The notes: generated by a model from the sequence alone, not told the origin. A stretch of DNA of 64,000 nt from an uncultured Bacilli bacterium (GCA_947629255.1 CANRDF010000002.1:44-64043); one strand, 5' to 3'; positions 5,032-59,445 are shown, numbered from the stretch's first letter. Translations and numbers: made by a program.

Positions 5032-5649
5032 TTATCTTAATTTCCCTATTTGGCTTTCAAAATCTTCTTGCATACAAACGAATGAGCCACTTACCACTCG
5101 ATCGGCATAAGGACGAACCAAAAAAACCGTTTGATCGTTAATTCCTCCATCTATTGAAATTTCAAAATTTTTTTTTAATTTATCAATCTCTTGTAATTTA
5201 GGAATTACACTTTCCATAAATTCCTGTCCACCTTTTCCAGGATGAACCGTCATAACTAAAACAACATCAATATTACTTAAAAAAGGAAGAATCTTTTCAA
5301 TCGATGTTTCAGGATTAATAGATAAACCTACTGGAATGGAATAAGATTTGATAAGAGATATAAACTCATTTACATTCGGTATTTCTACAGGAATCGTGAT
5401 ACAACACGGGTTTAGGCTAGTTAAATATTCAATCTCTTCTTTTGGATTCTCTATCATTAAATGAATATCAATGGGCTTTGTAACATCTTGTAAATCTTTC
5501 ATGATTTCTTGAATCTCATAATTTCTTTCTCCACAAAAAATGCCATCAATCAAATCGACATGGATATAATCTGCCGAAGATTCATTAATTTTTTGAATCG
5601 TTTCTTTTTTTCCATATATACTTTTTAAATAAGACACCGCTACTTTCAT
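5032..5649 (-). CDS. rpe: ribulose-phosphate 3-epimerase
   Basis: 205 aa with motifs HVDLIDG, IDIHLMIENP, HPGKGGQEF and IDGGIN. Conserved position after rsgA, as in other Firmicutes. Confidence 0.8.
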   Translation of the reverse strand: MKVAVSYLKSIYGKKETIQKINESSADYIHVDLIDGIFCGERNYEIQEIMKDLQDVTKPIDIHLMIENPKEEIEYLTSLNPCCITIPVEIPNVNEFISLIKSYSIPVGLSINPETSIEKILPFLSNIDVVLVMTVHPGKGGQEFMESVIPKLQEIDKLKKNFEISIDGGINDQTVFLVRPYADRVVSGSFVCMQEDFESQIGKLR

Positions 5650-5811: not shown

Positions 5812-6648
5812 TTATTTTTTTCTTTCCAATACTATTTTTTGATAATTTTCATATCGAGATGGTAGAATATTTCCGTCCTCTACTGCCTGTTTTACTCCAC
5901 AACCAATTTCTTTTTGATGACTACAATCTCGAAATTTACAAGGATACTCATTAAATTCTACAAAACTTGTTTTGATTTCTTCTAAAGAATATTTATCAAA
6001 GCTTAAGCTGGAAAAACCTGGTGTATCACAAAAATAAATCTCTTGAATTTCATAAATTTCTGTATGTCTTGTTGTATGCTTTCCACGATTTAAAGCTTCT
6101 GATATTGCCTTTGTTTCGATATTTAAATTCTCATCCATACGATTTAAAAGAGTACTTTTTCCTGCTCCACTTTGACCTGTTAAAACCACAAAAGAATGTT
6201 TGAGATAAGAAATTAATGGTTTTAAATGTTCATTATCAAATACAGGAATGCCAATTGATTCATAGTATTTTTTAAGTATTTGATATTCTTTTAAAATTTG
6301 TTTACTTGCTAAATCTAATTTGGTAAAACAAATGACTGGTGTAACATTCGAAAGAAGAATACTTATAATTTCTTTATCTAATAAAAGTGTGCTTAAATTG
6401 GGTTCTACTAAAGAAGTCACTATAAGAGCTACATCAACGTTTACGACACTTGGTCTTAGAAGTTCATTTTTTCTTGGAAGAATCTCGACAATTGAAGAAT
6501 TTTTCTCATCAATTCTTACTCGATCTCCAACAAAAGGAGTTATTTTTTGTTTTCGAAATAACCCCCTTGGAGTACAGACATACTTTGTTTGATTACAAAG
6601 TACTGTATAAGAATTGCTTATATTTTTAACAATAATCCCTTCTAACAT
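5812..6648 (-). CDS. rsgA: ribosome small-subunit-dependent GTPase A
   Basis: 278 aa. Circularly permuted GTPase motifs (TKLDL, GQSGAGKSTLLN, DTPGF) and a C-terminal zinc knuckle (CKFRDCSHQKEIGCGV). Confidence 0.9.
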   Translation of the reverse strand: MLEGIIVKNISNSYTVLCNQTKYVCTPRGLFRKQKITPFVGDRVRIDEKNSSIVEILPRKNELLRPSVVNVDVALIVTSLVEPNLSTLLLDKEIISILLSNVTPVICFTKLDLASKQILKEYQILKKYYESIGIPVFDNEHLKPLISYLKHSFVVLTGQSGAGKSTLLNRMDENLNIETKAISEALNRGKHTTRHTEIYEIQEIYFCDTPGFSSLSFDKYSLEEIKTSFVEFNEYPCKFRDCSHQKEIGCGVKQAVEDGNILPSRYENYQKIVLERKK

Positions 6649-44390: not shown

Positions 44391-44633
44391 TTAAATATTT
44401 GGAGTATTTTTACCACGCCAAACTGTAACTTGTGTAATAATCATTTTGTCATCAGGACTTAATTTTTGAGACATCGCTCCAAATATTTCTGGTAAATCTT
44501 GAGTACTAAATACTTGATATGTATTATCAAATAATTTTGTATTGTATTGAAATGATTCTACATAATCAATAGCATCTTTCTTACCATTACAATCATTATT
44601 AGCAAATTGAAATGTAACAATATAACTATTCAT
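44391..44633 (-). CDS. small hypothetical protein (tandem paralog 2)
   Basis: 80 aa and roughly 75% identical by eye to the 81-aa neighbour. No family recognised. Confidence 0.5.
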   Translation of the reverse strand: MNSYIVTFQFANNDCNGKKDAIDYVESFQYNTKLFDNTYQVFSTQDLPEIFGAMSQKLSPDDKMIITQVTVWRGKNTPNI

Positions 44634-44669: not shown

Positions 44670-44915
44670 TTAAATATTTGGAATATTTTTACCTCTAAAA
44701 GAAATAGAGTGTGCAATAATCATTTTATCATCAGGACTTAATTTTTCAGATATAGCTCCAAATATTTCTGGTAAATCTTGGTTACTAAATACTTGATATG
44801 TATTATCAAATAACTTTGTATTGTATTGGAATGACTCTACATAATCAATTGCTTCTTTTTTACAGTTACAATCTTTAGTATCTGAAAATTTAAAGGTTAT
44901 AATATAACTATTCAT
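44670..44915 (-). CDS. small hypothetical protein (tandem paralog 1)
   Basis: 81 aa, MNSYIITFKFSD...YVESFQYNTKLFDNTYQVF. GGAGG-like RBS (gggaggaag) upstream. Confidence 0.5.
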   Translation of the reverse strand: MNSYIITFKFSDTKDCNCKKEAIDYVESFQYNTKLFDNTYQVFSNQDLPEIFGAISEKLSPDDKMIIAHSISFRGKNIPNI

Positions 44916-45142: not shown

Positions 45143-45451
45143 TTATTTTCTATTTTCTTCTTTTAACTTTTCAATTGCTGTTATTGATAATCCTGTGACT
45201 TCAGATATATAACTTATATCAGATTTTCCTAACATTGCTTTTGCAATTTCCATTCTTTCTTCTTCAACTGCTTCTTCTTTAGCAAGAGAGATTCTAGTAT
45301 TCGTAAGACGCTCTTTGTCTTCCTCTTCAGAAACTGTCCTTATAAATGTTCCATCACTATTTAATATATACATTTTCTGATCAAACTCCTTTACTAATTC
45401 ATCTTTCTTCGATAACTCCACAAGTTCTTCTTCACTTGCTCCTAACATCAC
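45143..45451 (-). pseudogene. C-terminal fragment of an Rpn/PDDEXK_2 (YhgA-like) recombination-promoting nuclease gene
   Basis: Carries only the C-terminal tail (..EIAKAMLGK..ISEVTGLSITAIEKLKEE), typical of this family. About 190 nt are near-identical to 53449-53770. Confidence 0.6.
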
Positions 45452-45486: not shown

Positions 45487-46343
45487 TTAATTTTGATTTA
45501 ACTTTTTTTGTAACTTTCTAATTTTTCCTTTTGTTACACCTGTAACTTTAGAAATTTTGTCTATTCCAAGTTCTGGAGTTTCCTCTAACATAGACTTAGC
45601 TATTTCAATGTTACGTTTCTTAGCAGCTTTTTCTTGGGCAATCTCAATTCTTGCATTCATAAGTAACTCTTGATCTCTTTCTTCAGATATTGTTCTTGTA
45701 AATGTATTATCACTATTTAATACAAACATTTTCTCATCAAACTCCTTTACTAGTTCATCTTGTTTAGATAATTCCATTAATTCTTTTTCATTTGCACTTA
45801 ACATCACTAAATGGATATTCTCTTTCTCGCCTTGTATGTTCTTATGATAACACTCTTTTTTAATTGTTGCAAGATTGATGGTTATAATTTTATAATTTTT
45901 TACATATGGTTTTAATGTTTTCGGATTTAAAAGTTGATAAACTTTTTTTTGCTCTCCTTTTTCTTCTCTAATAAAATTGAAGTCTATATTATGTGTACAA
46001 ATTCGCTCTTGGTATCATATTTATTTCCTCTTTTTACTTTCTCTGAATAATAAGAATTAAAGAAACAAAGGTTACGAACTCTTGTGGCTTCACCAAAAGA
46101 TGTATTTACTTCCACATGAGTATATTTTCCATCTTTTGTTTTAAGTAAGACATCTAAAACTTTCACTCTTTCTTTTTTATTACGAACAGGAAGTTCCGTT
46201 GGATAAAACTTTAAGACTTTCACTTCTTGTTCTAAAACTTCCTAAGCACGCGCATTCATAAATTTCGTATTATCAGGATTTACAAAAACGGTTTTAAAGA
46301 TTCGATCAATTTTAGCAGTTAAATAAGCGTCTTTTTTTGCCAT
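45487..46343 (-). pseudogene. Rpn/PDDEXK_2-family nuclease/putative transposase, disrupted
   Basis: Reads MAKKDAYLTAKIDRIFKTVFVNPDNTKFMNARA, then TAG (about 46244), then EVLEQEVKVLKFYPTEL...LDVLLKTKDGKYTHVEVN. A frameshift follows at about 45984 and the C-terminal tail runs to 45487. Confidence 0.7.
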
Positions 46344-46782: not shown

Positions 46783-47076
46783 CTATTCTTCAATATATTT
46801 ATTATCTAATAAATACTTTATATACTCTTCACAACTCATTGTACAATTCATATATCTTTCAAAATCATCTTTTTCTAACCTGATTTGTTTCATCATCGTT
46901 TTTAAAAGTCCATCTGGTATATCTTTTTGAGAACCACGACTAATTTTAGTATTAATTGCTGTCTTTTTTCCATTTCTATATATGTAAAAATATTCATGGT
47001 CTCCAGGAACCTCAGAAAATCCTTTCTTTAAAAGGATTCGTTTCACATCCTTTTTAGTTCTTGGCATTTTGTTCAA
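46783..47076 (-). CDS. HicA-like toxin-fold protein with C-terminal extension
   Basis: 97 aa. MPRTKKDVKRILLKKGFSEVPGDHEYF...DIPDGLLKTMMKQIRL parallels the HicA pattern (..eviklLek.GF......GSH........diP.gtl..ilkq.gl). Confidence 0.5.
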   Translation of the reverse strand: MNKMPRTKKDVKRILLKKGFSEVPGDHEYFYIYRNGKKTAINTKISRGSQKDIPDGLLKTMMKQIRLEKDDFERYMNCTMSCEEYIKYLLDNKYIEE

Positions 47077-47512
47077 ATAAAGACAGCAATTTATATTTTA
47101 ATTTTTGAGCATTGGTATCCAAATCACAATCGTTTTCAAAAACATAACTATGATATTGGAATTTCAATTCACATAGTAAATTGTTTTCTGCATCATTTTG
47201 AGTTTTGCCATAAACATACACATTATATTCTTCATTAGAATAGTAAAATCCATCTTCATCTGAACTTATAACAAATTCTATTGATTTTGAAAGTCTCACC
47301 ATTTTGTCTTGATCCACATCATATAATTCTATAAATGATTTTTGATATTCTGATTTTTCCATAATATAATTTTCTCCTATTATATTATTATTATCATTTC
47401 TTATCATTTTATTACTTTTAAAAATAAATTTTTTAATAAAATCATTTAATCTATTTTCTTGTTTAATATTTTCTATATAAGGAGTAGAAACAGTTGTATT
47501 TATATTTATCAT
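47054..47512 (-). CDS. hypothetical protein, possible HicB-like antitoxin
   Basis: 152 aa with a 23-nt overlap onto the HicA-like gene. The segment FVISSDEDGFYYSNEEYNVYVYGKTQNDAENNL resembles the HicB N-terminal fold pattern. Weak call. Confidence 0.35.
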   Translation of the reverse strand: MININTTVSTPYIENIKQENRLNDFIKKFIFKSNKMIRNDNNNIIGENYIMEKSEYQKSFIELYDVDQDKMVRLSKSIEFVISSDEDGFYYSNEEYNVYVYGKTQNDAENNLLCELKFQYHSYVFENDCDLDTNAQKLKYKLLSLFEQNAKN

Positions 47513-47533: not shown

Positions 47534-48145
47534 TTAATTTTCTTGATCAATATAACGATTACAAAAAGAAAGAAAACTTTTAATAAATTTTTTATCAATG
47601 ATTATATCTTGATTCATACAAGTATTAAAATCATACATTTTTAATAAACCATCAAAATTATCGGAATCACTTATACTCCTTTCCCAACAATTAATATTAA
47701 TATTATCAAATTTTAATTTTTTAAGCCAAGAAAATTGAAAATCAATAGTATCCATAAATATATTAGAATTCATACAACTTGTTTTAAAATCATTTTTTTT
47801 ATTTGCGTCAAACATTAAAGATGGAACATATCCCACTCTAACAAGTGCGACATCTTCTTCTAAAAATAACTTTAAAATAGTAAATACTATTTCCTCTAAT
47901 CGTATAATAAATGAATTTTTAACAGTAATCCTTATATTATTAAAATTTGCTAAAATTTGTAAATTAGGATTTTGATTAAAAATTATAAAAGGCTGATTAT
48001 TTTCTTGAGATGCCTCTATATTGATTGGTAAAATTATTGCCTCCCCTATTTCTGGAAATTTTTCTTTTATTAAAAATCCCATTTTCGATAATTTGTACAT
48101 AGTTTCATTAGCAAAGAAAAGAACAAACTGAATCTCATTTATCAT
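47534..48145 (-). CDS. hypothetical protein
   Basis: 203-aa ORF, first gene after the operator-bearing promoter region at 48150-48230. No family recognised. Confidence 0.5.
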   Translation of the reverse strand: MINEIQFVLFFANETMYKLSKMGFLIKEKFPEIGEAIILPINIEASQENNQPFIIFNQNPNLQILANFNNIRITVKNSFIIRLEEIVFTILKLFLEEDVALVRVGYVPSLMFDANKKNDFKTSCMNSNIFMDTIDFQFSWLKKLKFDNININCWERSISDSDNFDGLLKMYDFNTCMNQDIIIDKKFIKSFLSFCNRYIDQEN

Positions 48146-48252: not shown

Positions 48253-49131
48253 TTAATCTTTAATTTCTAAATAATAATTCTTAAAATCTTCATGATAATA
48301 ACTTGTAACATTAAAATGCGTTTCTTTATGAAGTTCTATTGCGGTTATTAAATGTCTTATAAATAGTGCTATTAAATCTGCCGAATCATGCTCTAAAGTT
48401 AACAATAAACTAGATACATTAAACCTTTGAGTTTCTATATCATTTATTTTTACTGTAAAGGTTGGATAGCAATATGTTTTGATACTTGTAAAGCTATCTA
48501 TTGTTTCTTTATCTAAAAAAGTATTATTTTTAAAATCTTCTTCTACCATTTGATATGTGTAACATCCCTTTTTTAATATTAAAATGAAATTATGCCTAAA
48601 AGAATTATCAATCCCTTTATAAATATCATCAAAATCAACTTTTCTTAAATCAAATTGAACATTTTTACAAATCAAAAAACTAAAAATAGAATTGTATTCT
48701 TTTATCCTAGCTTTCGAATCTTCAGTTTGACACATCTTTTTTATATTTGATAATTTTCTTAATGCGACTTTAAATTCACTTTTCGTTAATCCAGATTTTA
48801 TTTCGCCTACTGCAAAAACACATTCTGATGGAAAAAATTGTAAAAAGTTATCTTTAATAAATTTAGGAGTATTTTTATCATAAACTACTATATCACATTG
48901 TGTACTTATTTCGTTTTTTGGATTTACTATAAATCCATCTCCAACAGCCTTATTGTCATCAATAATGAACTCAAGAAGATGTTTTGTACATTTTTCCCTA
49001 TAATGTCCAAATTCTGCTGGATGAATTAACTTTTTACCATTTTTAAAAATTTTTTCGGACTGTTCTGTAAAAACATATTCAAATGTTTTTAATTGATCAT
49101 AAAAAAGTTCTTTAATTATTTCATGTTTCAT
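48253..49131 (-). CDS. DUF6602-like PD-(D/E)XK nuclease-fold protein
   Basis: 292 aa. The pattern GHYREKCTKHLLEFI...GDGFIVNPKNEISTQCDIVVYD...FPSECVFAVGEIKSGLTKSEF shows a D...E-x-K core and matches the DUF6602 pattern as I recall it. Confidence 0.6.
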   Translation of the reverse strand: MKHEIIKELFYDQLKTFEYVFTEQSEKIFKNGKKLIHPAEFGHYREKCTKHLLEFIIDDNKAVGDGFIVNPKNEISTQCDIVVYDKNTPKFIKDNFLQFFPSECVFAVGEIKSGLTKSEFKVALRKLSNIKKMCQTEDSKARIKEYNSIFSFLICKNVQFDLRKVDFDDIYKGIDNSFRHNFILILKKGCYTYQMVEEDFKNNTFLDKETIDSFTSIKTYCYPTFTVKINDIETQRFNVSSLLLTLEHDSADLIALFIRHLITAIELHKETHFNVTSYYHEDFKNYYLEIKD

Positions 49132-49227
49132 CTTACTACCAACTTCTTTCTTTTGATAGTTAGATTAGCATAGATTTTTAGGAAACACAACAGAAAAAAT
49201 AACCATGCAAGGTTTACTTTCCCCCCT

Positions 49228-50325
49228 TTAATTTTCAAAATGTCCTCCCCTATATAATTTTTCAATATTATGGGCTTCTTGAAGTTCTTTATTTGTTGCA
49301 TTAGAAAGAGATACGACTCTTTTAGGACTTACAATAAATGTGCAATCAGGTCGTGTTATTTTATTACTCATAAGATAAGTATTATGGGTTGATAAAATAG
49401 TCTGTAAATTTGGAGTAGAGTTTAATTCTTTTACAACACTTTCTGCTAAATCAAAATGATAGTTAACATCAAACTCATCGATAAACAAAAACTTTACATT
49501 TGCTTGTTCTAGCCAAATCCTCCAACTGTAAAATAACCATAAATCATTCGTTCCTGTAGAAATCAAAGTAAAAAAAGGCACAACTGCATCTTTAAATCTT
49601 ATTCCTATTATATGATGATTACCTAAATTCATATCTTCTAAATGATAATTGATATGATTATTTTTTAAGAAAGTTTCAAAATTTTTTAATTTATTCTTTC
49701 TTAAAATAATATCATTTAATTCATTGTTGTGATATTTAATTCCAATAGATTCATCTTTTTTAATCCATAACATAGAATTTACAAAATCCATAAGTAAATG
49801 AATAGGATGATTTTTTATTTTAGGAAGTCTACTTGCTAAATAATTAATCATAGACATATTATCAAAATATTCCCAATTTAAAGATTCTGTATCTTCTATT
49901 TTAATAAATAAATGTTCTAAATCTTGAAAATGATATTCTAAAACTGTTTCATGATTAACAATCAATTTCTCATACACAGGGACAGTATCATAATCTTTTT
50001 TATAATATATGTATTCGATCATCATGTCATCAAATTGAAAAGTATATTCAAATTCTGCATAATCACGTTTAATTTCTAAATTCAAATAATTTTGATAATA
50101 TTTTCCTACATTTTGATATTTGTTAGTTAAAGTTAAAACAATATCAAAAATAGCAAATCCTAAATTAGATTTACCTGATGCATTCTTACCAAATAGTATG
50201 CTATTTTTTACTATTTTATTTTGAATTAAATTTTTATTATATTGATAATCATTTGTATTTAATAAATTCAAAGTTACTTTCTTTGAAAATCCTTTAAAAC
50301 CTAAAACAGAAAATTTTGTTAACAT
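49228..50325 (-). CDS. ABC-type AAA_21/AAA_15-like ATPase (defence-associated), paralog 2
   Basis: 365 aa. Walker A GKNASGKSN, Walker B FLFIDEFDVNYH, and STHN. Mosaic paralog of 56179-57285. Confidence 0.8.
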   Translation of the reverse strand: MLTKFSVLGFKGFSKKVTLNLLNTNDYQYNKNLIQNKIVKNSILFGKNASGKSNLGFAIFDIVLTLTNKYQNVGKYYQNYLNLEIKRDYAEFEYTFQFDDMMIEYIYYKKDYDTVPVYEKLIVNHETVLEYHFQDLEHLFIKIEDTESLNWEYFDNMSMINYLASRLPKIKNHPIHLLMDFVNSMLWIKKDESIGIKYHNNELNDIILRKNKLKNFETFLKNNHINYHLEDMNLGNHHIIGIRFKDAVVPFFTLISTGTNDLWLFYSWRIWLEQANVKFLFIDEFDVNYHFDLAESVVKELNSTPNLQTILSTHNTYLMSNKITRPDCTFIVSPKRVVSLSNATNKELQEAHNIEKLYRGGHFEN

Positions 50326-50365
50326 ATACTTTCCTTTCTTCTTTTGAACTTTTTTGCTTTATTCG

Positions 50366-51409
50366 TTATAACCATCTATTTTCTATTTCTAAATTAGTTC
50401 TTTTTGAAGTACCAGTTAAAATTTCTATATCGCGAACGGTAAAACCCATCTCTTGTAATTTTTTTAAATCTAAATTCTTATATTCAGGATGAATAGTCTG
50501 AAAAAGAATTCTTAAATAATCTGATTTGTTATTGGAATTACTAAAAGCAATGGATGACTTTATAATATTTTTTAATTCTCCTGGATATGGAATAGGATTT
50601 AAAAGTTTTAAAATTTTATGAAATAATCTTTGATTTTGTTCTATTTCATTATTTTTAGAAAAATCTTTTAATAAGAGATCTGCAATTTCTATTAAATCTT
50701 CTTCTGAATAACGATTAAAATGAATCACTTTATCAAATCTTCGAATCAATGCTTTATCTAACTTTTGATACATATTCGTTGTCGCAATAAATAAAATACT
50801 ATCTAATAATGAATTTTCTAATTCTTTCAAAAACATGGAAGTCGCTCTTCCCATTTCTCTTAAATCATTATCATTGATTCTATCTAATGCTAAAGCATCT
50901 ATTTCATCAAATAAAACAATAATTTTTTCAGGATGAGGGAGTGTTTTTAATTCTTCAAATAATGCAGATATATTTTTTAAAGTTTGTCCAAGTTTACTGT
51001 CAATAATAGAATCAAATCGAACTGTGTACAAAACTCTATCTAAAATTCTTGCTAAATGTTTGGCTGTTTCTGTTTTTCCAGTTCCTGGAGCCCCTTCAAA
51101 TAAAAATTTATTGACACCACATTTTTTATGAATTGCATTAATAATACCAATAACATCGTTTTTAATTTCTTCCGGCAAAGGTAGTAAATTATTAGAAGGT
51201 TCTACTTTTTGATAAAATGTCAATTTTAAATCTTCTCTTTGAGGCACAAAAGTATTTTCATCTGATAATAAAGCTAAAATATATTGAGATAGCTCAGCAT
51301 CTCCATTTAATTCAAAATCTTTAGCAATCATATAAGCTTCACTTCTAAATGATTCATCTGAACCTTCTACATGATATCTTATTAAATTAATCACATTTCT
51401 TTTTCTCAC
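50366..51409 (-). CDS. classical AAA+ ATPase with N-terminal helical domain
   Basis: Walker A GAPGTGKTETAKHLA, Walker B VLFDEIDAL, and sensor/arginine region ATTNMYQKLDKALIRRFD. Start placed at GTG 51409 with SD TGAGGTG 6 nt upstream; the ORF track extends to 51457. Confidence 0.75.
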   Translation of the reverse strand: MRKRNVINLIRYHVEGSDESFRSEAYMIAKDFELNGDAELSQYILALLSDENTFVPQREDLKLTFYQKVEPSNNLLPLPEEIKNDVIGIINAIHKKCGVNKFLFEGAPGTGKTETAKHLARILDRVLYTVRFDSIIDSKLGQTLKNISALFEELKTLPHPEKIIVLFDEIDALALDRINDNDLREMGRATSMFLKELENSLLDSILFIATTNMYQKLDKALIRRFDKVIHFNRYSEEDLIEIADLLLKDFSKNNEIEQNQRLFHKILKLLNPIPYPGELKNIIKSSIAFSNSNNKSDYLRILFQTIHPEYKNLDLKKLQEMGFTVRDIEILTGTSKRTNLEIENRWL

Positions 51410-51428
51410 CTTTTTCACCTCATATTTT

Positions 51429-52313
51429 TTAGTATAAATAATATTGAATACTATCACTAAAATGTTCTTTTGATACTTTTAAAAACTCACAAGCTTTCTC
51501 TCTTTCAATCTCTCCATATGCTTCTAATTTATAAACCATTTTACGGAATTGATATGGTTCTTCTAATGGTATTACACTATCATCATATTTTTCTTTATTT
51601 AAATGTAAATGCACTAATAAATGACCTACTGAAAAGATAGGTGTTATTTGAAGTTCTCTTAAACGAATGATAATAGCATAGTAATTTATTTGAAATTCTT
51701 TTTTGAATGCTTCAATTTCACGAAAATTTAGATTGGCTCTGTAATCTCCGAATTCGTTTATCATTGCTCTTCTAGGCATTAGCAATGCATTTGCAAAACG
51801 CTGGCAAAGTTCTTCTTGATTTAATTCTTTGTTTTCAATATTAAGTATTAAGTGTCCTAATTCATGGGCAAGAGTAAGTTTTTGCTTTCTTCCATCTAAT
51901 GTTTTATTTATTAAAACAATAAATGGAATTCCTTCCACTACTTCACTAAATGATTCTATACCTTTAAATCTATTTTCCATATTTTTTATTTGAATAATAG
52001 CTATTCCCTTTTTTTCTAAAAGAAAAATTAAATTAGAAATAGGAAGTTTTTGGGAAACATTTATTTCATTTCTAAATTTAATTGCGCTATTCTCTGCATC
52101 TTCTAAACTTTTACAAGAATATTTTTTTAATTTATATATTTTTTTATTCGATAATTTTAAAACCTCCAAATATTTAACAATCTCAATTTGAATCAGTTCT
52201 TTTAAAAGTTTTAAATCTTGTTGTTTTATTTTTTTTCTTTTACGTAACGAATCAAAAGTTAATTTAGGAATTTCTAACTTCATTATCTCATTTAAATTAT
52301 TCATTTTAACCAT
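51429..52313 (-). CDS. ImmA/IrrE-family (M78) zinc metallopeptidase-like protein
   Basis: 294 aa with HELGHLIL (HExxH) followed by E..CQRFANALLMP, the typical ImmA/IrrE signature. I saw no HTH domain. Confidence 0.75.
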   Translation of the reverse strand: MVKMNNLNEIMKLEIPKLTFDSLRKRKKIKQQDLKLLKELIQIEIVKYLEVLKLSNKKIYKLKKYSCKSLEDAENSAIKFRNEINVSQKLPISNLIFLLEKKGIAIIQIKNMENRFKGIESFSEVVEGIPFIVLINKTLDGRKQKLTLAHELGHLILNIENKELNQEELCQRFANALLMPRRAMINEFGDYRANLNFREIEAFKKEFQINYYAIIIRLRELQITPIFSVGHLLVHLHLNKEKYDDSVIPLEEPYQFRKMVYKLEAYGEIEREKACEFLKVSKEHFSDSIQYYLY

Positions 52314-52422
52314 CTCTTTCTATTACTTTTTTATCACAAAAAGAAACATTTGTAAAGATTAAATTGATGTTTAATATAATTTAAATGCAAAAAAAGAAAT
52401 AGATTTATCATTCCCTATTTCC

Positions 52423-53274
52423 TTATTTCATTTCAATTTCTTTTACGTCAGCATACTCATAGTTTAGTGCATTACTACTAGTAACTACACTTTCACCAAG
52501 TTCATTTTCTAAATCTTTTCTTGCATTCCCTGCAATCTTTCCTCCACGTCTTGCTACTTCAATATTTTCGTTTAAACCTTTCGGATTTTTCTTTTTAGCA
52601 ATTTCTCTTGTTGCTATTTCACCTAAATCAGCTAAGGCTACTTCAACATCAGACATATTATCTCTTAGCGATTCTTTCCTAAGCCCTTTAAATGATTTAT
52701 ACTCCTTGGCGGTCATACCTGACCATTCTTTATATATTTCATTTGTTAAAATTGCATATTCTTTGGATTCAGTGATTCCACCATCTTTCCATACATCTGT
52801 AAGTTGTCTCCTATCCTGAATACTCTTCATTCGTTTTAATATCCATTTTTCATCATAGCCCTTAGTTCTATATAAGTCTATTGCTCTTTGGGCTGCTATA
52901 GAAGGATCAAATGTTTCATCAATTCTTTCACTTCCTAGTTTTGCTAGCCATTGTTTTATAGGTTCTGCATTTTTTGAAGGAATGGATTCAATAATTCTAA
53001 ACATTCCTTCTATATCTACTACATCAGTTAATCGATATTTACCATCACTAGCCTTAAGTTTCAACTGGTGACAATTTGTCACCGTTTCATTTCCTTCATC
53101 TTTGAGACGTTGTTTTAATTTGTTCCAATATTTTCTACCATCTTTACTTTCCGATACGACCCCTACAATGTCAACAACACTAATAAAGTACTTTTCTTTC
53201 TCCTTATCCCACACTGTTCTAATTGTTTCATTGTTAAATAGTTTGTTTACTAATTGCATTTTATCTTGATTCAT
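52423..53274 (-). CDS. Bro-N-domain protein (antirepressor/DinD-like)
   Basis: N-terminal Bro-N-like segment (ETIRTVWDKEKEKYFISVVDIVGVVSES..GRKYWNKLKQRL). Start placed at ATG 53274 (MNQDK) after AAGGAGAG; the ORF track starts at 53295. Confidence 0.65.
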   Translation of the reverse strand: MNQDKMQLVNKLFNNETIRTVWDKEKEKYFISVVDIVGVVSESKDGRKYWNKLKQRLKDEGNETVTNCHQLKLKASDGKYRLTDVVDIEGMFRIIESIPSKNAEPIKQWLAKLGSERIDETFDPSIAAQRAIDLYRTKGYDEKWILKRMKSIQDRRQLTDVWKDGGITESKEYAILTNEIYKEWSGMTAKEYKSFKGLRKESLRDNMSDVEVALADLGEIATREIAKKKNPKGLNENIEVARRGGKIAGNARKDLENELGESVVTSSNALNYEYADVKEIEMK

Positions 53275-53448
53275 AATCCATCTCTCCTTAATCATTTGTT
53301 TCTATTTTAAAACTTTAACTTTATTTTTTTTCAGCATTTCATTTTAACCATCTCTTTTCTGTTTTTGTTTTATCACAAAAAGAAACATTTGTAAAGATTA
53401 AATTGATGTTTAAAATAATTTTTTTACTTATTAAAAAAAATAGATTTT

Positions 53449-53859
53449 TTATTTTCTATTTTCTTCTTTTAACTTTTCAATTGCTGTTATTGATAATCCT
53501 GTAATTTTTGATATTTTTTCTATTCCAAGTTCTGGACTTTCTTCAAGCATTGATTTTGCAATTCCCATTTTTTCTTTGGCTTTAGCTTCTTCAGCTGCTT
53601 CTTCTTTAGCAAGAGAGATTCTAGTATTCGTAAGACGTTCTTTGTCTTCTTCTTCAGAAACTGTCCTTATAAATGTTCCATCACTATTTAATATATACAT
53701 TTTCTGATCAAACTCCTTTACTAATTCATCTTTCTTGGATAACTCCACAAGTTCTTCTTCACTTGCTCCTAACATCACTAGATGAATATTCTCTTTGTCG
53801 CCTTGTATGTTCTTATCATACCATTCTTTTTTGACATTTTCAATATTGATTGTAATCAT
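53449..53859 (-). pseudogene. C-terminal fragment of an Rpn/PDDEXK_2-family gene (third copy)
   Basis: ITINIENVKKEWYDKNIQGDKENIHLVMLGASEEEL... parallels residues of the 45487-46343 pseudogene. The PD-(D/E)XK N-terminal half is missing. Confidence 0.6.
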
Positions 53860-53942: not shown

Positions 53943-55400
53943 CTACATTAGAAGCCTAGCGGCCTGTAGTTCTTTTATTATCTGATGATACATGTCAATT
54001 ACATATTTTCGAAATATCTTAACATCTGTATTTCTTAACTTGGTATTAGTAGCTCTTACTAATGGATAATCAAATGAACCATATTCAACCATTTGACTTT
54101 TTAATGAGTTTATAATACTTGTGCCCGTAAAAGCATACTTTTCAACATCATATAAACTACAAACTTTGATATGATTTATAATCCATTTATACAATCTATC
54201 AGATGTGTTTATCTTTAATTTCTCTGCCACCTTTTTATATATTAATTCCCTCTTAATATAAGATTCCTCCAATAAAACCACAATTCCAAAGCAATTATCA
54301 CGATTAAAATTAGTTTTATCATCATTTTCAAAAAAATCATATGATCTCTTAAAATCTAAATAAATTTGTTTGTATAATTGAACTACTGCATTGCTTATCT
54401 TGTTTATCTCATCTAAAATTGATTTTTCTTTCATACATCTAGTTTTAGAATAAGGAACCATTGATTTACATTCAAAAAATAGATATTCATTATTAATTCT
54501 ACACATGACATCTGAAGTTTTTAATTGATTTTTATTTTTTATATATTCTTTTTCTAGTATGATTTCAGTAAATAAATTTGATTTTAGTAAAATATCATAT
54601 AAATAAGCTTCCAAAACATCTTTGCCAAATAAAGTTCTGATATCATTTTGATTATCAGTAATTCTATATAGTAACGAATCAGTCACTGCTCTTGTTAAAC
54701 AATGCGGTAAAGGTAAATAAATTTTTTGACCATACTTAATAAATGGATAAATATCTGAAGGTCTAACACAATATAGATAATCTTCTATATTTTCTGCAAA
54801 CAAATCAATTTCTTTTTTAAATTCTTCTCGTGATATTGTTAATAGTTTTACCACAGTAGCATATTTCAAAAGTATATACTCTATTATTTTATAATTTAAT
54901 GAAACTTTTGAAGCAAAAAGAAAATTTAATATAATTCCAAATTCTAAAACAGATTTGTATTCTATTCCAAATTTTTTATAAAATTCATTTTTCATACTAA
55001 TTTTAGGACAAGTATAATTAAAAAAATAGTTGTATCTAAAATATTTATATATATCATAAGATTGGCAATCATATTGTGTTGAGCCAAATGCAATCAATAC
55101 ATAATCCACAAATTCTGATGTCTCACTTTTGCTAAGCAAAAAAGGATGGTGATAATTTCTTATGCAATTAATTATTTCGGAAAAATTATTTATATTCTGA
55201 CCTTTGAAATCTTTGAATTGATATTCATCCGCTTTAACCGAAAACATCAAAAAAGTTTCCAATTCCCATGGCATTGGTTGATTTTTATTGATTTTCAGAC
55301 AGTTAAAATCTATAAGTTGTAAAGAATAATACATCAAAATTCTCATTTTTTCATCAAATGAATATCTTTTTAAAATAACGGGCAATTTTTTATAATCCAT
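53943..55400 (-). CDS. hypothetical 485-aa protein with a possible C-terminal PD-(D/E)XK core
   Basis: Third gene of the ATPase-RloB operon, RBS AAGAGGT. The segment SDVMCRINNEYLFFECKS fits D-x12-E-x-K. No family recognised. Confidence 0.55.
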   Translation of the reverse strand: MDYKKLPVILKRYSFDEKMRILMYYSLQLIDFNCLKINKNQPMPWELETFLMFSVKADEYQFKDFKGQNINNFSEIINCIRNYHHPFLLSKSETSEFVDYVLIAFGSTQYDCQSYDIYKYFRYNYFFNYTCPKISMKNEFYKKFGIEYKSVLEFGIILNFLFASKVSLNYKIIEYILLKYATVVKLLTISREEFKKEIDLFAENIEDYLYCVRPSDIYPFIKYGQKIYLPLPHCLTRAVTDSLLYRITDNQNDIRTLFGKDVLEAYLYDILLKSNLFTEIILEKEYIKNKNQLKTSDVMCRINNEYLFFECKSMVPYSKTRCMKEKSILDEINKISNAVVQLYKQIYLDFKRSYDFFENDDKTNFNRDNCFGIVVLLEESYIKRELIYKKVAEKLKINTSDRLYKWIINHIKVCSLYDVEKYAFTGTSIINSLKSQMVEYGSFDYPLVRATNTKLRNTDVKIFRKYVIDMYHQIIKELQAARLLM

Positions 55401-55417: not shown

Positions 55418-56182
55418 TTAAATTTGCATATTTGCTTGTCCAACAGTTTTTCGAAAAAATTTATCATTAAAATATTCTATTGGCCATAAACAAAAAGTAT
55501 TTATAATGCTAACTGTCCCTTCTCTAAGTTTGTTTTTCATATATTTCAACAATTTTTCTTGAGAAAAATTCATTTTGTATTCTTCTTTTGATGTACTTAT
55601 ATCACAATTCAATAAATATTCATATTTATTCATCATCTGCTTCATTATAATTATGTATTGTTTTCTATTCATTTTTGAAAGATCACCAATACAAGAATAC
55701 TTATCAATATATCTTTTATACCCGTTTTTATGACATCGACTTATCAAAAATTCATAAGAATTAAAATCACTATCTGGAATGCTTTTAAAATGTTTAAAAG
55801 ATTCAAACATAGGATAATTTATATAAATCTTTCCATGGTTTGTTTCATCATCAAAAATTTGTATCATTTCTTGAACTTTAGATATAGAAAAGCCTTTATC
55901 TTGAGGATCTAGATCGAAGACCAAATAAACTTCTGGAAATTTTTTAGAAGACAAGATATTATATAATTCCATATTGTTGTCCTTAAGTGCTTTTTCCCTT
56001 ACTAATTCAACAATCTCTAAATCTGGATCCTCTTTTATTTCTTTATATAATGTATATATATTTGTACAATATGGTACACAGTAAAAATCATTTGTTTCTT
56101 TTTTTAAAAATAATCTTTGTATCACATCAAATAATTGTTTTTCCCCATTTTTACCCTCTACAATAAAGAGGATATTTTTCAT
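55418..56182 (-). CDS. RloB-like (AbiLii-like, Toprim-related) protein
   Basis: 254 aa. N-terminal ILFIVEGKNGEKQLF, then VYLVFDLDPQD and INYPMFESF, parallel the RloB pattern (CEGxxTE..YF / D.D / SNPCFE.W). 4-nt overlap with the upstream ATPase. Confidence 0.6.
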   Translation of the reverse strand: MKNILFIVEGKNGEKQLFDVIQRLFLKKETNDFYCVPYCTNIYTLYKEIKEDPDLEIVELVREKALKDNNMELYNILSSKKFPEVYLVFDLDPQDKGFSISKVQEMIQIFDDETNHGKIYINYPMFESFKHFKSIPDSDFNSYEFLISRCHKNGYKRYIDKYSCIGDLSKMNRKQYIIIMKQMMNKYEYLLNCDISTSKEEYKMNFSQEKLLKYMKNKLREGTVSIINTFCLWPIEYFNDKFFRKTVGQANMQI

Positions 56183-57285
56183 GCTATAAAATGACCTCCT
56201 CTATATAATTTTTCAATATTATGTGCTTCTCTAAGTTCTTTATCGGTTGCGTTAGAAAGCGACACGACTCTTTTAGGACTCACAATAAATGTACAATCAG
56301 GTCGGGTAATTTTATTACTCATAAGATAAGTATTATGTGTTGATAAAATAGTCTGTAAATTTGGAGTAGAGTTTAATTCTTTTACAACACTTTCTGCTAA
56401 ATCAAAATGATAGTTAGCATCAAACTCATCGATAAACAAAAACTTTATATTTGCTTGTTCTAATTGAATCTTCCAACTATAAAATAGCCATAAATCATTC
56501 GTTCCTGTAGAAATCAAAGTGAAAAAAGGCACAACTTCTTCTCCAAACCTTACTCCTATTACATGACGATTGCCTAAATCCATATCTTCTAAATGATAGT
56601 TAATTCCATTGGACTTCAAAAAATTTTCAAAATCTTTTAATTTATTATTTTTTAAAATAATATCATTTAATTCATCTATTTGATTTTTAATTCCTATAAA
56701 ATCTCTACCTTCGACACTTTTAAACCATAACATAGAATTTACAAAATCCATAAGTAAATGAATAGGATGATTTTCTGTTTTAGGAAGTCTACTTGCTAAA
56801 TAATTAATCATAGACATATTATCAAAATATTCCCAATTTAAAGATTCTGTGCCTTCTATTTTAATAAATAAATGTTCTAAATCTTGAAAATGATATTCTA
56901 AAACTGTTTCATGATTAACAATCAATTTCTCATACACAGGGACAGTATCATAATCTTTTTTATAATATATGTATTCGATCATCATGTCATCAAATTGAAA
57001 AGTATATTCAAATTCTGCATAATCACGTTTAATTTCTAAATTCAAATAATTTTGATAATATTTTTCTACATTTCGGTATTTGTTAGTTAAAGTTAAAACA
57101 ATATCAAAAATAGCAAATCCTAAATTAGATTTTCCCGATGCATTATCTCCAAATACCAATCCGTTTTTTACTATTTTGTTTTGAGTTAAATTCATATTAT
57201 ATTGATAATCATTAGTATTTGATAAATCCAATGTTACTTTTTTTGAAAATCCTTTAAAACCTATAACTGAAAATTTAGCTAACAT
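56179..57285 (-). CDS. ABC-type AAA_21/AAA_15-like ATPase (AbiLi/AriA-like), paralog 1
   Basis: 368 aa with Walker A GDNASGKSN, Walker B FLFIDEFDANYH, and STHN. Confidence 0.8.
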   Translation of the reverse strand: MLAKFSVIGFKGFSKKVTLDLSNTNDYQYNMNLTQNKIVKNGLVFGDNASGKSNLGFAIFDIVLTLTNKYRNVEKYYQNYLNLEIKRDYAEFEYTFQFDDMMIEYIYYKKDYDTVPVYEKLIVNHETVLEYHFQDLEHLFIKIEGTESLNWEYFDNMSMINYLASRLPKTENHPIHLLMDFVNSMLWFKSVEGRDFIGIKNQIDELNDIILKNNKLKDFENFLKSNGINYHLEDMDLGNRHVIGVRFGEEVVPFFTLISTGTNDLWLFYSWKIQLEQANIKFLFIDEFDANYHFDLAESVVKELNSTPNLQTILSTHNTYLMSNKITRPDCTFIVSPKRVVSLSNATDKELREAHNIEKLYRGGHFIA

Positions 57286-59368: not shown

Positions 59369-59445
59369 GGGGGACTAGCTCAGTTGGCTAGAGCATCTGC
59401 CCTGCACGCAGAGGGTCGCGGGTTCGAGTCCCACGTCCTCCACCA
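59369..59445 (+). tRNA. tRNA-Ala (anticodon UGC), CCA encoded
   Basis: Hand-folded cloverleaf. Acceptor GGGGGAC/GTCCTCC with the G3:U70 Ala identity pair. D arm GCTC-AGTTGGCTA-GAGC. Anticodon arm TCTGC-CCTGCAC-GCAGA. T arm GCGGG-TTCGAGT-CCCAC. Oddities are C at position 33 and one C:A mismatch in the T stem. Confidence 0.8.

Follow-up and report, generated by a model that had tools for sequence, protein, structure and literature searches.

Layout of the locus and its island

Four genes lie in a row on the minus strand of the window, by which we mean the whole 64,000-nucleotide stretch of DNA that was analysed. The initial annotation had called these four open reading frames, and all of them were present at the coordinates it gave. 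The features of the locus and two neighbours that serve as context are as follows.

52300-52445, minus: upstream cassette of ~150 nt, presumed promoter and 5' leader, duplicated at 53338-53489
51429-52313, minus: gene 1, HTH-less ImmA/IrrE-type M78 metallopeptidase (294 aa; 291 aa if the second ATG is used)
50366-51409, minus: gene 2, IetA AAA+ ATPase (347 aa from a GTG)
49228-50325, minus: gene 3 (A'), PDC-M12A/AbiLi-like ABC (AAA_21) ATPase (365 aa)
49132-49227, minus: 96-nt spacer, part of the A' unit and kept in the sister lineage
48253-49131, minus: gene 4, DUF6602 nuclease with a NucC-like restriction-endonuclease fold (292 aa)
55418-57285, minus: context, complete PDC-M12 A+B pair (A, 56179-57285; B, 55418-56182; 4-nt overlap)
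52423-53295, minus: context, Bro-N/DinD-like single-gene candidate system PDC-S13, behind the second cassette copy

The genes are separated by gaps of 19 nt (genes 1 and 2), 40 nt (genes 2 and 3) and 96 nt (genes 3 and 4), and no terminator-like sites were found between them on the coding strand. These gap sizes and the lack of terminators are compatible with a single transcript. The core of the upstream cassette (52317-52382), within the stretch that the initial annotation called as promoter, is a conserved element with a 92% identical copy at 53356-53421, upstream of the Bro-N gene, and both copies of the cassette are also retained in the sister lineage. A consensus promoter scan returned 46 sites against 40.7 expected and is uninformative at 25% G+C. 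Probably a single transcript covers the locus, driven by a promoter cassette that also serves elsewhere in the island. Rpn/PDDEXK_2 fragments, a toxin-antitoxin-like HicA/HicB-like pair and an AbiL-like pair surround the locus, as originally described. Duplicated stretches are also found around it.

The four genes and their usual partners

The domain readings of the initial annotation (an M78 protein without HTH, an AAA+ ATPase, an AbiL-type ABC ATPase and a DUF6602 PD-(D/E)xK protein) agree with the profile matches. The gene 1 protein carries HELGH at residues 150-154, followed by FANALLMP, and matches Pfam Peptidase_M78 (PF06114, 9e-9) and the PADLOC profiles RmrA (8e-25) and capP (1.5e-13); its match to the NCBIfam spr1629-family (7e-16) is far under that model's cutoff. 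Relatives at about 50% identity (49-52% to 347-aa proteins) are, among the matches listed, almost all 345-356 aa long and contain HTH_3. HELGH is invariant across the alignment. Columns 2-48, the HTH region of all the 347-aa homologues, are missing from the window protein and from one other (P0121). No HTH Pfam match was obtained for the window protein. In two context look-ups covering 9 contigs, M78 homologues overlap a 171-aa DUF3368 (PIN-like) gene. DUF3368 is by classification a VapC-group PIN toxin of toxin-antitoxin systems (PMC5499597). A tblastn search for DUF3368 across the 64-kb window gave nothing at E<=1.

By its sequence, gene 1 is what is left of an antitoxin-type Xre-HTH/M78 protein, the M78 part, after loss of the HTH and of the DUF3368 partner. 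It shares the M78 catalytic domain and the family C-terminal domain with Xre-HTH plus M78 pairs (RosmerTA RmrA, the spr1629-family and HTH-M78/DUF3368). Unlike those proteins, it has lost the whole N-terminal HTH (~55 aa), in place of which stand the promoter cassette and a new start, and it adjoins IetA instead of a DUF3368 or RmrT-type partner.

Gene 2 starts with GTG after a GAGGTG Shine-Dalgarno sequence, 19 nt past the M78 stop, and encodes the motifs GAPGTGKT, DEID and RRFD. It matches Pfam AAA (3e-24) and PADLOC IetA (5e-38); the NCBIfam IteA model scores it at 106 bits, under the equivalog cutoff of 510. IetAS was originally a toxin-antitoxin pair of plasmid pTiC58, and IetS is subtilisin-like. 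Gao et al. 2020 reportedly presented IetAS as a defence system. The toxin of the pair is the protease IetS, and the ATPase IetA is its antitoxin (PMC13069673). Over residues 1-336 the window protein is 52-63% identical to 92 IetS-linked IetAs, and homology stops at about residue 336 (about window position 50400). It deviates at 10 of 129 conserved columns, mostly conservatively (canonical members, 3.8±3.0), and conserved columns are kept in all three domains (N-terminal, AAA+ core and C-terminal).

Of 80 species genomes, 79 have the S8 protease IetS (~741 aa) directly downstream of IetA, and the same pairing was seen in all 13 complete viral-contig loci and in loci L005-L012. The single IetS-less genome locus of the 80 (L081) is a plain internal deletion that fused the last 15 aa of IetS to IetA; therefore toxin loss recurs. 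Four IetS queries run by tblastn against all 64 kb of the window detected no IetS (best E 0.22). The alignments identify gene 2 as a canonical IetA from which IetS was removed through a break inside the last ~10 ietA codons. It shares the N-terminal domain, AAA+ core and C-terminal domain of IetAS ATPases. It differs from IetAS in that these last ~10 codons are replaced, an ABC ATPase gene comes next, and an M78 gene stands upstream, an arrangement seen at none of the 79 IetS-bearing loci (no M78 homologue detected within 6 kb). The AAA+/metalloprotease pairing that the initial annotation drew from genes 1 and 2 is not conserved in their families, where IetA homologues pair with IetS and M78 homologues with DUF3368.

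Gene 3 (A') has intact Walker A, Walker B and H-loop motifs (GKNASGKSN, IDEFD and STHN). It matches AAA_21 (7.5e-15), AbiLi (4e-31) and, over positions 1-364 of 369, PADLOC PDC-M12A (3.5e-110). The window has a single B homologue, which belongs to a complete A+B pair located 7 kb upstream. A' and the A gene of that pair are 88% identical in amino acid sequence, in a mosaic pattern with gene-conversion tracts of 100% identity. In Fusobacterium, Raoultella and Acinetobacter, the A homologues all have a B homologue behind them. Comparison of these sequences indicates that A' is an old extra PDC-M12A/AbiLi-type paralogue, recently gene-converted by the complete pair. It resembles the PADLOC candidate system PDC-M12 and AbiL (AbiLi ATPase plus RloB-like AbiLii) in matching PDC-M12A end to end, but it is without the overlapping RloB-like B gene; the 96-nt spacer and the unrelated DUF6602 nuclease gene stand there.

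Gene 4 matches DUF6602 (PF20247, 5e-22), PADLOC PD_DExK (3e-28) and NucC (2.5e-17), and its residues D80, E110 and K112 are invariant among 17 homologues. Its AF2 model (pLDDT 80) resembles NucC (E 4e-12, TM ~0.7), with the whole NucC chain covered. NucC is the cA3-activated nuclease of CBASS and type III CRISPR. Gene 4 differs from it by ~50 extra C-terminal residues, and no cyclase (CD-NTase/SMODS) lies near gene 4. Very different genes, among them those for integrase, FtsK/HerA, YobI NTPase and methylases, neighbour the 80 metagenomic DUF6602 homologues. Nothing resembling window genes 1-3 was found beside them, no homologue of the window ABC ATPase occurs within 5 kb, and AAA_21 is absent from their annotated neighbour families. 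Among the plasmid loci inspected, a solitary Klebsiella copy lies next to repA, and unrelated genes adjoin the other copies. The ABC ATPase/nuclease pairing read from genes 3 and 4 therefore does not hold for their relatives, since PDC-M12A homologues pair with PDC-M12B and DUF6602 has no constant partner. These varied neighbours are compatible with autonomous action. The Damona system is a single-gene DUF6602 cassette of a Vibrio cholerae integron that protects against phage alone (bioRxiv 10.1101/2024.07.02.601686). Compared by that paper's domain description, gene 4 shares with Damona the DUF6602 domain and the same secondary Cas PD_DExK and CBASS small-endonuclease matches, and DUF6602 homologues likewise have variable, often solitary genomic contexts. 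One DUF6602 gene (L035) adjoins a SMODS-AGS_C gene.

We also considered CBASS type III, which consists of a CD-NTase, HORMA, TRIP13 and NucC with CapH/CapP regulators. No cyclase, HORMA gene or CapH-type HTH partner was found at the locus; a single weak HORMA match (E 0.006) falls in the HicB-position protein. The window AAA+ protein matches IetA (5e-38) far better than TRIP13 (1e-16).

Sister lineages and selection

All four genes occur together only in same-species contigs (L192, L022 and L023) that are 97.7-100% identical. In the sister lineage (L001-L004) the M78-IetA-A' part is present at ~89% nucleotide identity; there a 349-nt MITE interrupts M78, A' has a frameshift and IetA is intact. 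Position 4 is occupied there by an OLD-like gene of 571 aa (ATPase-TOPRIM) instead of DUF6602. The 96-nt spacer after A' is conserved, and homology ends 8 nt into gene 4. The difference at position 4 is part of a block replacement, 4 kb in the window against 1.7 kb in the sister. The 4-kb block also brought the HicAB-like pair and Rpn fragments. At this position DUF6602 was seen only in the window's own species, which alone acquired this NucC-fold nuclease. Another lineage (L191) contains an intact HTH-less M78 gene plus IetA. The junction between the HTH-less M78 and IetA is common to three lineages.

The dN/dS ratio was 0.06-0.10 for IetA and 0.12-0.29 for M78 (0.12-0.16 for the window-L191 and window-L001 pairs, 0.29 for one pair). 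For A' it was 0.26-0.30, a more relaxed constraint. The window and L001, which both have the IetS-less junction, are separated by a dS of ~0.27. As estimated from these substitution rates, IetA and M78 have been under purifying selection over a dS of ~0.3-0.5, after partner loss, which shows function of some kind. A derived, toxin-less function is thus possible. Because IetA is intact and constrained in L001-L004 despite the broken M78 and A', it is independent of both.

Interpretation of the locus

Our favoured reading, which we regard as probable, is that the locus is a recombinational mosaic in a chromosomal defence island, built from parts of four catalogued modules. It would be a lineage-specific patchwork of the orphan halves of three known two-gene defence or toxin-antitoxin systems together with a stand-alone nuclease, and we hold this with similar, moderate confidence. 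Genes 1 and 2 would be toxin-less remnants kept by selection, and would most likely serve to counteract or control cognate toxins or repressors provided in trans. Such a role would be of an anti-addiction or immunity type, directed against incoming IetAS-type elements; direct phage killing seems less likely. A', if active, would most likely work together with the PDC-M12B nearby, as an alternative ATPase subunit. Gene 4 is most likely a nuclease effector that works on its own, in the manner of Damona. With separate roles for the modules, any anti-phage effect of the region would come from separable modules and not from a four-protein machine.

Such a machine, a single novel four-component defence system, had been the original proposal for this locus. 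One upstream cassette, short gaps without internal terminators and the persistence of the genes together in several same-species contigs would suit it. However, all four genes belong to PADLOC-catalogued families, each has a different conserved canonical partner elsewhere, and the expected co-occurrence in other genomes does not extend beyond the nearly identical contigs, the sister having genes 1-3 only, with genes 1 and 3 broken. We consider this system highly improbable. It is unlikely, too, that the locus comprises two new tandem two-gene systems, in which M78 replaces IetS for IetA and A' uses DUF6602 instead of the RloB/TOPRIM-like B, the latter being an effector swap of the AbiL/PARIS/Septu type. 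The junction shared by three lineages, the dN/dS of 0.06-0.16 in most pairs (one M78 pair at 0.29), the intact catalytic motifs and the presence of a nuclease-containing gene past the spacer in both lineages (DUF6602 here, OLD-like ATPase-TOPRIM in L001) can be cited for it. Against the first pair, M78 stands upstream of IetA and not in the IetS position, no M78 homologue was detected within 6 kb of any IetS-bearing locus, the conserved positions of IetA are not remodelled for a new partner, and IetA is maintained in L001-L004 while M78 is disrupted by the MITE and A' by the frameshift. Against the second, A homologues elsewhere are always found with B, none of the 80 DUF6602 loci has the ABC ATPase homologue within 5 kb, and the exchange at position 4 involved blocks of 4 and 1.7 kb and was no precise effector exchange.

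Partner loss in three of the four genes, the Rpn/PDDEXK_2 fragments and duplicated stretches, the MITE and the frameshift in the sister genes, and the relaxed constraint on A' (dN/dS ~0.3) could instead mean that the locus is non-functional debris, degraded toxin-antitoxin and defence remnants that are still open but heading to pseudogenisation. This seems quite unlikely, because all active-site residues are kept, IetA is intact at a dN/dS of 0.06-0.10 in three lineages long after IetS loss (dS ~0.27), and M78 is constrained in the window-L191 and window-L001 comparisons and intact in L191.

The mosaic reading has its own counter-points. Selection on IetA and M78 could reflect a new joint function and not an orphan role, and in this species none of the four reading frames or of their catalytic motifs is broken, with a spacing that would suit one transcript. 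The nuclease-containing gene past the 96-nt spacer in both lineages could also reflect an exchange of effectors behind A'. A doubtful but related proposal is that M78 and IetA, inherited together downstream of a captured promoter, form a new derivative of two antitoxins that has no toxin, with A' and an exchangeable nuclease slot as the output. If so, the M78-IetA protease-unfoldase pair might sense or disarm phage proteins or incoming elements of the IetAS or Xre-M78 type.

Gene content and upstream cassette

The initial annotation had described four minus-strand ORFs, and these were found with all the motifs that it quoted. Profile searches bore out the domain call of each gene (M78, AAA, AAA_21 and DUF6602). 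The pair in the last two lines is the complete PDC-M12 system of the same window; gene 3 is a second copy of its ATPase and is designated A'.

Features of the locus and its surroundings, with PADLOC matches
51429-52313, minus strand: gene 1, M78 peptidase (Peptidase_M78; RmrA 8e-25, capP 1.5e-13)
50366-51409, minus strand: gene 2, AAA+ ATPase (AAA; IetA 5e-38)
49228-50325, minus strand: gene 3 (A'), ABC ATPase (AAA_21; PDC-M12A 3.5e-110, AbiLi 4e-31)
48253-49131, minus strand: gene 4, DUF6602 protein (DUF6602; cas-associated PD_DExK 3e-28, NucC 2.5e-17)
52300-52445 and 53338-53489: two copies of a ~150-nt upstream cassette (core of 66 nt, 92% identical)
56179-57285: PDC-M12A (A), pair located 7 kb upstream of A'
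55418-56182: PDC-M12B (B), overlapping A by 4 nt

Gene 2 starts with a GTG that follows a GAGGTG Shine-Dalgarno sequence, 19 nt past the M78 stop. Gaps of 40 nt and 96 nt precede the ABC ATPase and DUF6602 genes, respectively, and no terminator-like hairpin was found between the four genes on the coding strand. The stretch that had been proposed as their single promoter is a real conserved element: segment 52317-52382 is repeated with 92% identity at 53356-53421, upstream of a Bro-N gene (PDC-S13, 8e-116). It is a putative promoter; a consensus scan was uninformative in this 25% G+C DNA, as promoter-like sites were not commoner than in shuffled sequence. Two defence genes that are unlike each other each lie behind one cassette copy, and the sister lineage (contigs L001-L004) keeps both copies. 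An imperfect inverted repeat, TTACAAA-N9-TTTGTGA, spans the putative -35/-10 region of the cassette and is a possible operator at which a shared regulator would bind. The sole match in an Rfam scan of the whole window was a tRNA gene at the island edge, just past serS (59369-59442, plus strand), leaving the locus without an RNA element. A megablast search of the locus against plasmids matched only a 166-nt AAA+ fragment.

IetA and M78 genes and their missing partners

Relatives of gene 2 number in the thousands at about 60% identity, with more than 5,700 IetA homologues found in all. In the first context look-up, a 741-aa Peptidase_S8 gene abutted the ATPase homologue in the classical IetAS arrangement. 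In this plasmid TA pair the protease, IetS, is the toxin and the ATPase, IetA, the antitoxin (PMC13069673). A related IetAS system occurs in the Erysipelotrichaceae locus L031. With an IetA alignment we surveyed GTDB species, each represented by one genome, and searched the 80 best loci by tblastn. IetS lay directly downstream of IetA in 79 of them, with IetS-bearing loci from Bacillota, Actinomycetota, Spirochaetota, Fibrobacterota, Fusobacteriota, Saccharibacteria and others; on viral contigs the pairing was present in all complete loci (13/13). IetS is absent from the window (best E 0.22). Similarity of the window IetA to other IetAs ends at about residue 336, which places the break that removed ietS within the last ~10 codons of ietA. 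The conserved family columns are kept in its N-terminal, AAA+ and C-terminal parts, with mostly conservative deviations at 10 of 129 conserved columns, as compared to 3.8±3.0 in IetS-linked members. Gene 2 is a canonical IetA whose IetS partner has been lost.

The sole IetS-less locus among the best 80 (L081, Fibrobacter) has HTH-M78 and HNH genes upstream of IetA and an AAA_21 ATPase gene downstream. We rejected it as an independent second case of the architecture. It is a recent simple IetS deletion: its IetA is 88.6% identical at the nucleotide level to the IetA of an IetS-bearing Fibrobacter, and the ORF terminates in the last 15 residues of IetS. No relation between its ABC ATPase and that of the window was detectable by BLAST. 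A remnant of type III CBASS (CapP-like, TRIP13-like and NucC-like proteins) was likewise rejected for the window locus, which has no cyclase or HORMA gene and whose ATPase is an IetA with 60% identity to canonical IetAs.

The IetA N-terminal domain occurs alone as an 87-aa protein on a phage contig (L209, IMGVR_UViG_3300025141_001339, 5992-6255) and also on contig L210 (1065-1359). The L209 protein shares 50% identity with residues 1-84 of the window IetA (tblastn 3e-22), and its gene is immediately upstream of the terminase large subunit and portal genes. Its role may be that of a phage decoy or an anti-IetAS factor.

Homologues of the M78 protein at about 50% identity are nearly all 345-356 aa long with an N-terminal HTH_3 domain, and those of 347 aa overlap a ~171-aa DUF3368 gene (9 contigs in two look-ups). 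DUF3368 is a VapC-group PIN-like TA toxin family (PMC5499597). By alignment, the window M78 is missing exactly the HTH_3 domain, whose place is taken by the upstream cassette of the island together with a new start; neither an HTH nor DUF3368 was found at this gene. The HTH-less form was seen only in the window's own clade, in the third lineage (P0121/L191) and as a disrupted copy in L001. Gene 1 represents the peptidase moiety of a protein of the Xre-M78 antitoxin type.

Origins of the ABC ATPase and DUF6602 genes

A' and A share 88% protein identity. At the DNA level they match in a mosaic fashion: certain tracts are 100% identical, and in others A' is nearer to the sister-lineage A' (0.92-0.97) than to the window A (0.78-0.83). 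This indicates that A' is an old paralogue that has recently undergone gene conversion. In Fusobacterium and on Raoultella and Acinetobacter plasmids, a B homologue follows each A homologue, and among these are 4-kb plasmids with A and B as their only cargo genes. A' has no B gene of its own. An ABC ATPase search of viral contigs found nothing. A 485-aa ORF with no family match (53943-55400, minus strand) begins 17 nt after PDC-M12B and may be an undescribed third component of the PDC-M12 variant here.

A profile of 17 DUF6602 homologues, among which D80, E110 and K112 are invariant, matched NucC structures (E 3e-17). The AF2 model of gene 4 (pLDDT 80, pTM 0.82) superposes on the whole NucC chain (Foldseek E 4e-12, TM ~0.7). 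We clustered the immediate neighbours of DUF6602 homologues in 80 metagenomic loci and found Tn916-type integrases, an FtsK/HerA-type ATPase, Xre repressors, YobI NTPase, methylases, an exonuclease and unknown proteins. No homologue of the window M78, IetA, ABC ATPase, PDC-M12B or other neighbours lay within 5 kb in these 80 loci. Elsewhere, a DUF6602 homologue is beside a complete PDC-M37 (Dodola-like) pair (L029), with a Mokosh-like cluster (L026), or solitary and adjoining repA on a Klebsiella plasmid. Gene 4 is thus predicted to encode a DUF6602 nuclease of NucC fold that has no constant partner. Damona, a single-gene DUF6602 cassette, protects experimentally against phage (bioRxiv 10.1101/2024.07.02.601686), and gene 4 shares the secondary matches reported for it (Cas PD_DExK, CBASS small endonuclease).

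Two candidate partners were rejected: the AAA ATPase preceding DUF6602 in L029 is PDC-M37B/DolB-like and unrelated to IetA, and the Pusillibacter "ATP-binding protein" encoded upstream of DUF6602 belongs to the DUF815 AAA proteins rather than the ABC ATPases. Directly after a canonical IetAS pair in an Anaerorhabdus MAG (L035, 6001-11348) come genes for a 246-aa DUF6602/NucC-like protein and a SMODS-AGS_C cyclase; these two genes are a CBASS-like module, in which the nuclease has a signalling partner. A DUF6602 search of the phage collection found nothing.

Close relatives, selection and the reading of the locus

The relatives of the window are uncultured low-G+C Bacillota MAG contigs. A same-species contig (L192, 99.95% identical) has all four genes, and two shorter ones (L022, 97.7%; L023, 100%) carry the A' end and DUF6602. 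The sister lineage (~89% nucleotide identity) has in common with the window the Bro-N gene, cassette, M78, IetA, A' and 96-nt spacer. The homology stops 8 nt into gene 4, and a 571-aa OLD-like ATPase-TOPRIM gene stands where the window has a 4-kb block of DUF6602, a 203-aa protein, a HicAB-like pair and Rpn fragments. Gene 4 was acquired recently and in this species only. The sister IetA is intact. A frameshift divides the sister A' into pieces of 233 aa and 134 aa, and a 349-nt MITE interrupts the M78 gene in L001 (GCA_947630065.1, ~5190-5538); the terminal inverted repeats of this MITE (ACCTCAATTCGCCTAAAGTGTTGCT) match perfectly over 25 bp, and its target-site duplication (AAAAAATA) measures 8 bp. 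At least one lineage can dispense with M78 and A'. The third lineage has an intact HTH-less M78, a ~170-nt insertion and then IetA.

dN/dS by the Nei-Gojobori method
IetA: 0.06-0.10
M78: 0.12-0.29
A': 0.26-0.30

The shared genes and these estimates indicate that the M78(ΔHTH)-IetA-A' string is older than the lineage split (dS 0.27-0.48). Purifying selection on IetA, and to a lesser degree on M78, has persisted without the canonical partners.

A new four-gene system, as the initial annotation proposed, would be a notable addition to the defence catalogue, but the comparative evidence says otherwise. Each gene belongs to a known family, all four occur together in the same-species L192, and the sister lineage has no DUF6602 at position 4. 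The arrangement is a non-canonical, lineage-specific variant built of known-family members. The locus is probably best read as a mosaic rather than a four-gene machine or a set of conserved pairs. Genes 1 and 2 would be two antitoxin-type genes left without toxins; survival of the antitoxin side is expected in TA decay, since a cell can lose a toxin without harm but not an antitoxin. The TA literature includes the concept of anti-addiction, and IetA, perhaps also M78, may be kept because they act on cognate toxins or repressors that arrive in trans, neutralising or regulating them. Gene 3 would be an orphan, gene-converted paralogue that may supply PDC-M12B, encoded nearby, with an alternative ATPase subunit, and gene 4 may be autonomous, acting alone in a Damona-like manner.

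The real selection on IetA and M78, and the recurrence in both lineages of A', spacer and a nuclease-bearing gene, would also suit two new functional pairs, M78 with IetA and A' with the nuclease. We consider this unlikely, since IetA is intact where M78 and A' are broken, its conserved positions are unchanged, and neither pairing was found outside the window's clade. Comparative data give no support to conserved 2+2 pairs. Read as a mosaic, the locus is a clear natural example of defence-island decay and reshuffling, with toxin/effector halves lost, antitoxin/sensor halves kept, paralogues gene-converted and cassettes swapped behind conserved spacers, and it calls for caution when defence systems are sought by "guilt-by-operon". 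The remaining puzzle is the strong purifying selection on a canonical IetA (and an HTH-less M78) without a toxin. If the orphan IetA is an anti-addiction or anti-IetS factor, it would bear on the IetAS mechanism.

Other minus-strand features of the island were also recorded.

46783-47512, minus strand: HicA toxin (PF07927) and an overlapping upstream 152-aa HicB-position protein
47534-48145, minus strand: 203-aa protein, no family match, preceding the HicB-position gene
45143-45451, 45487-45807, 45984-46223 and 53449-53859, minus strand: Rpn/PDDEXK_2 "recombination-promoting nuclease" fragments
44391-44633 and 44670-44915, minus strand: tandem 80-aa and 81-aa genes, 86% identical in nucleotides, no family match

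The HicA, HicB-position and 203-aa genes came with DUF6602 in the species-specific 4-kb block. The Rpn fragments, three C-terminal pieces and one N-terminal, flank the block that differs from the sister lineage, and a longer PDDEXK_2 ORF, of 249 aa, occupies the equivalent position in L022. The tandem genes, which lie between the island and the polysaccharide locus, are also kept by the sister lineage.
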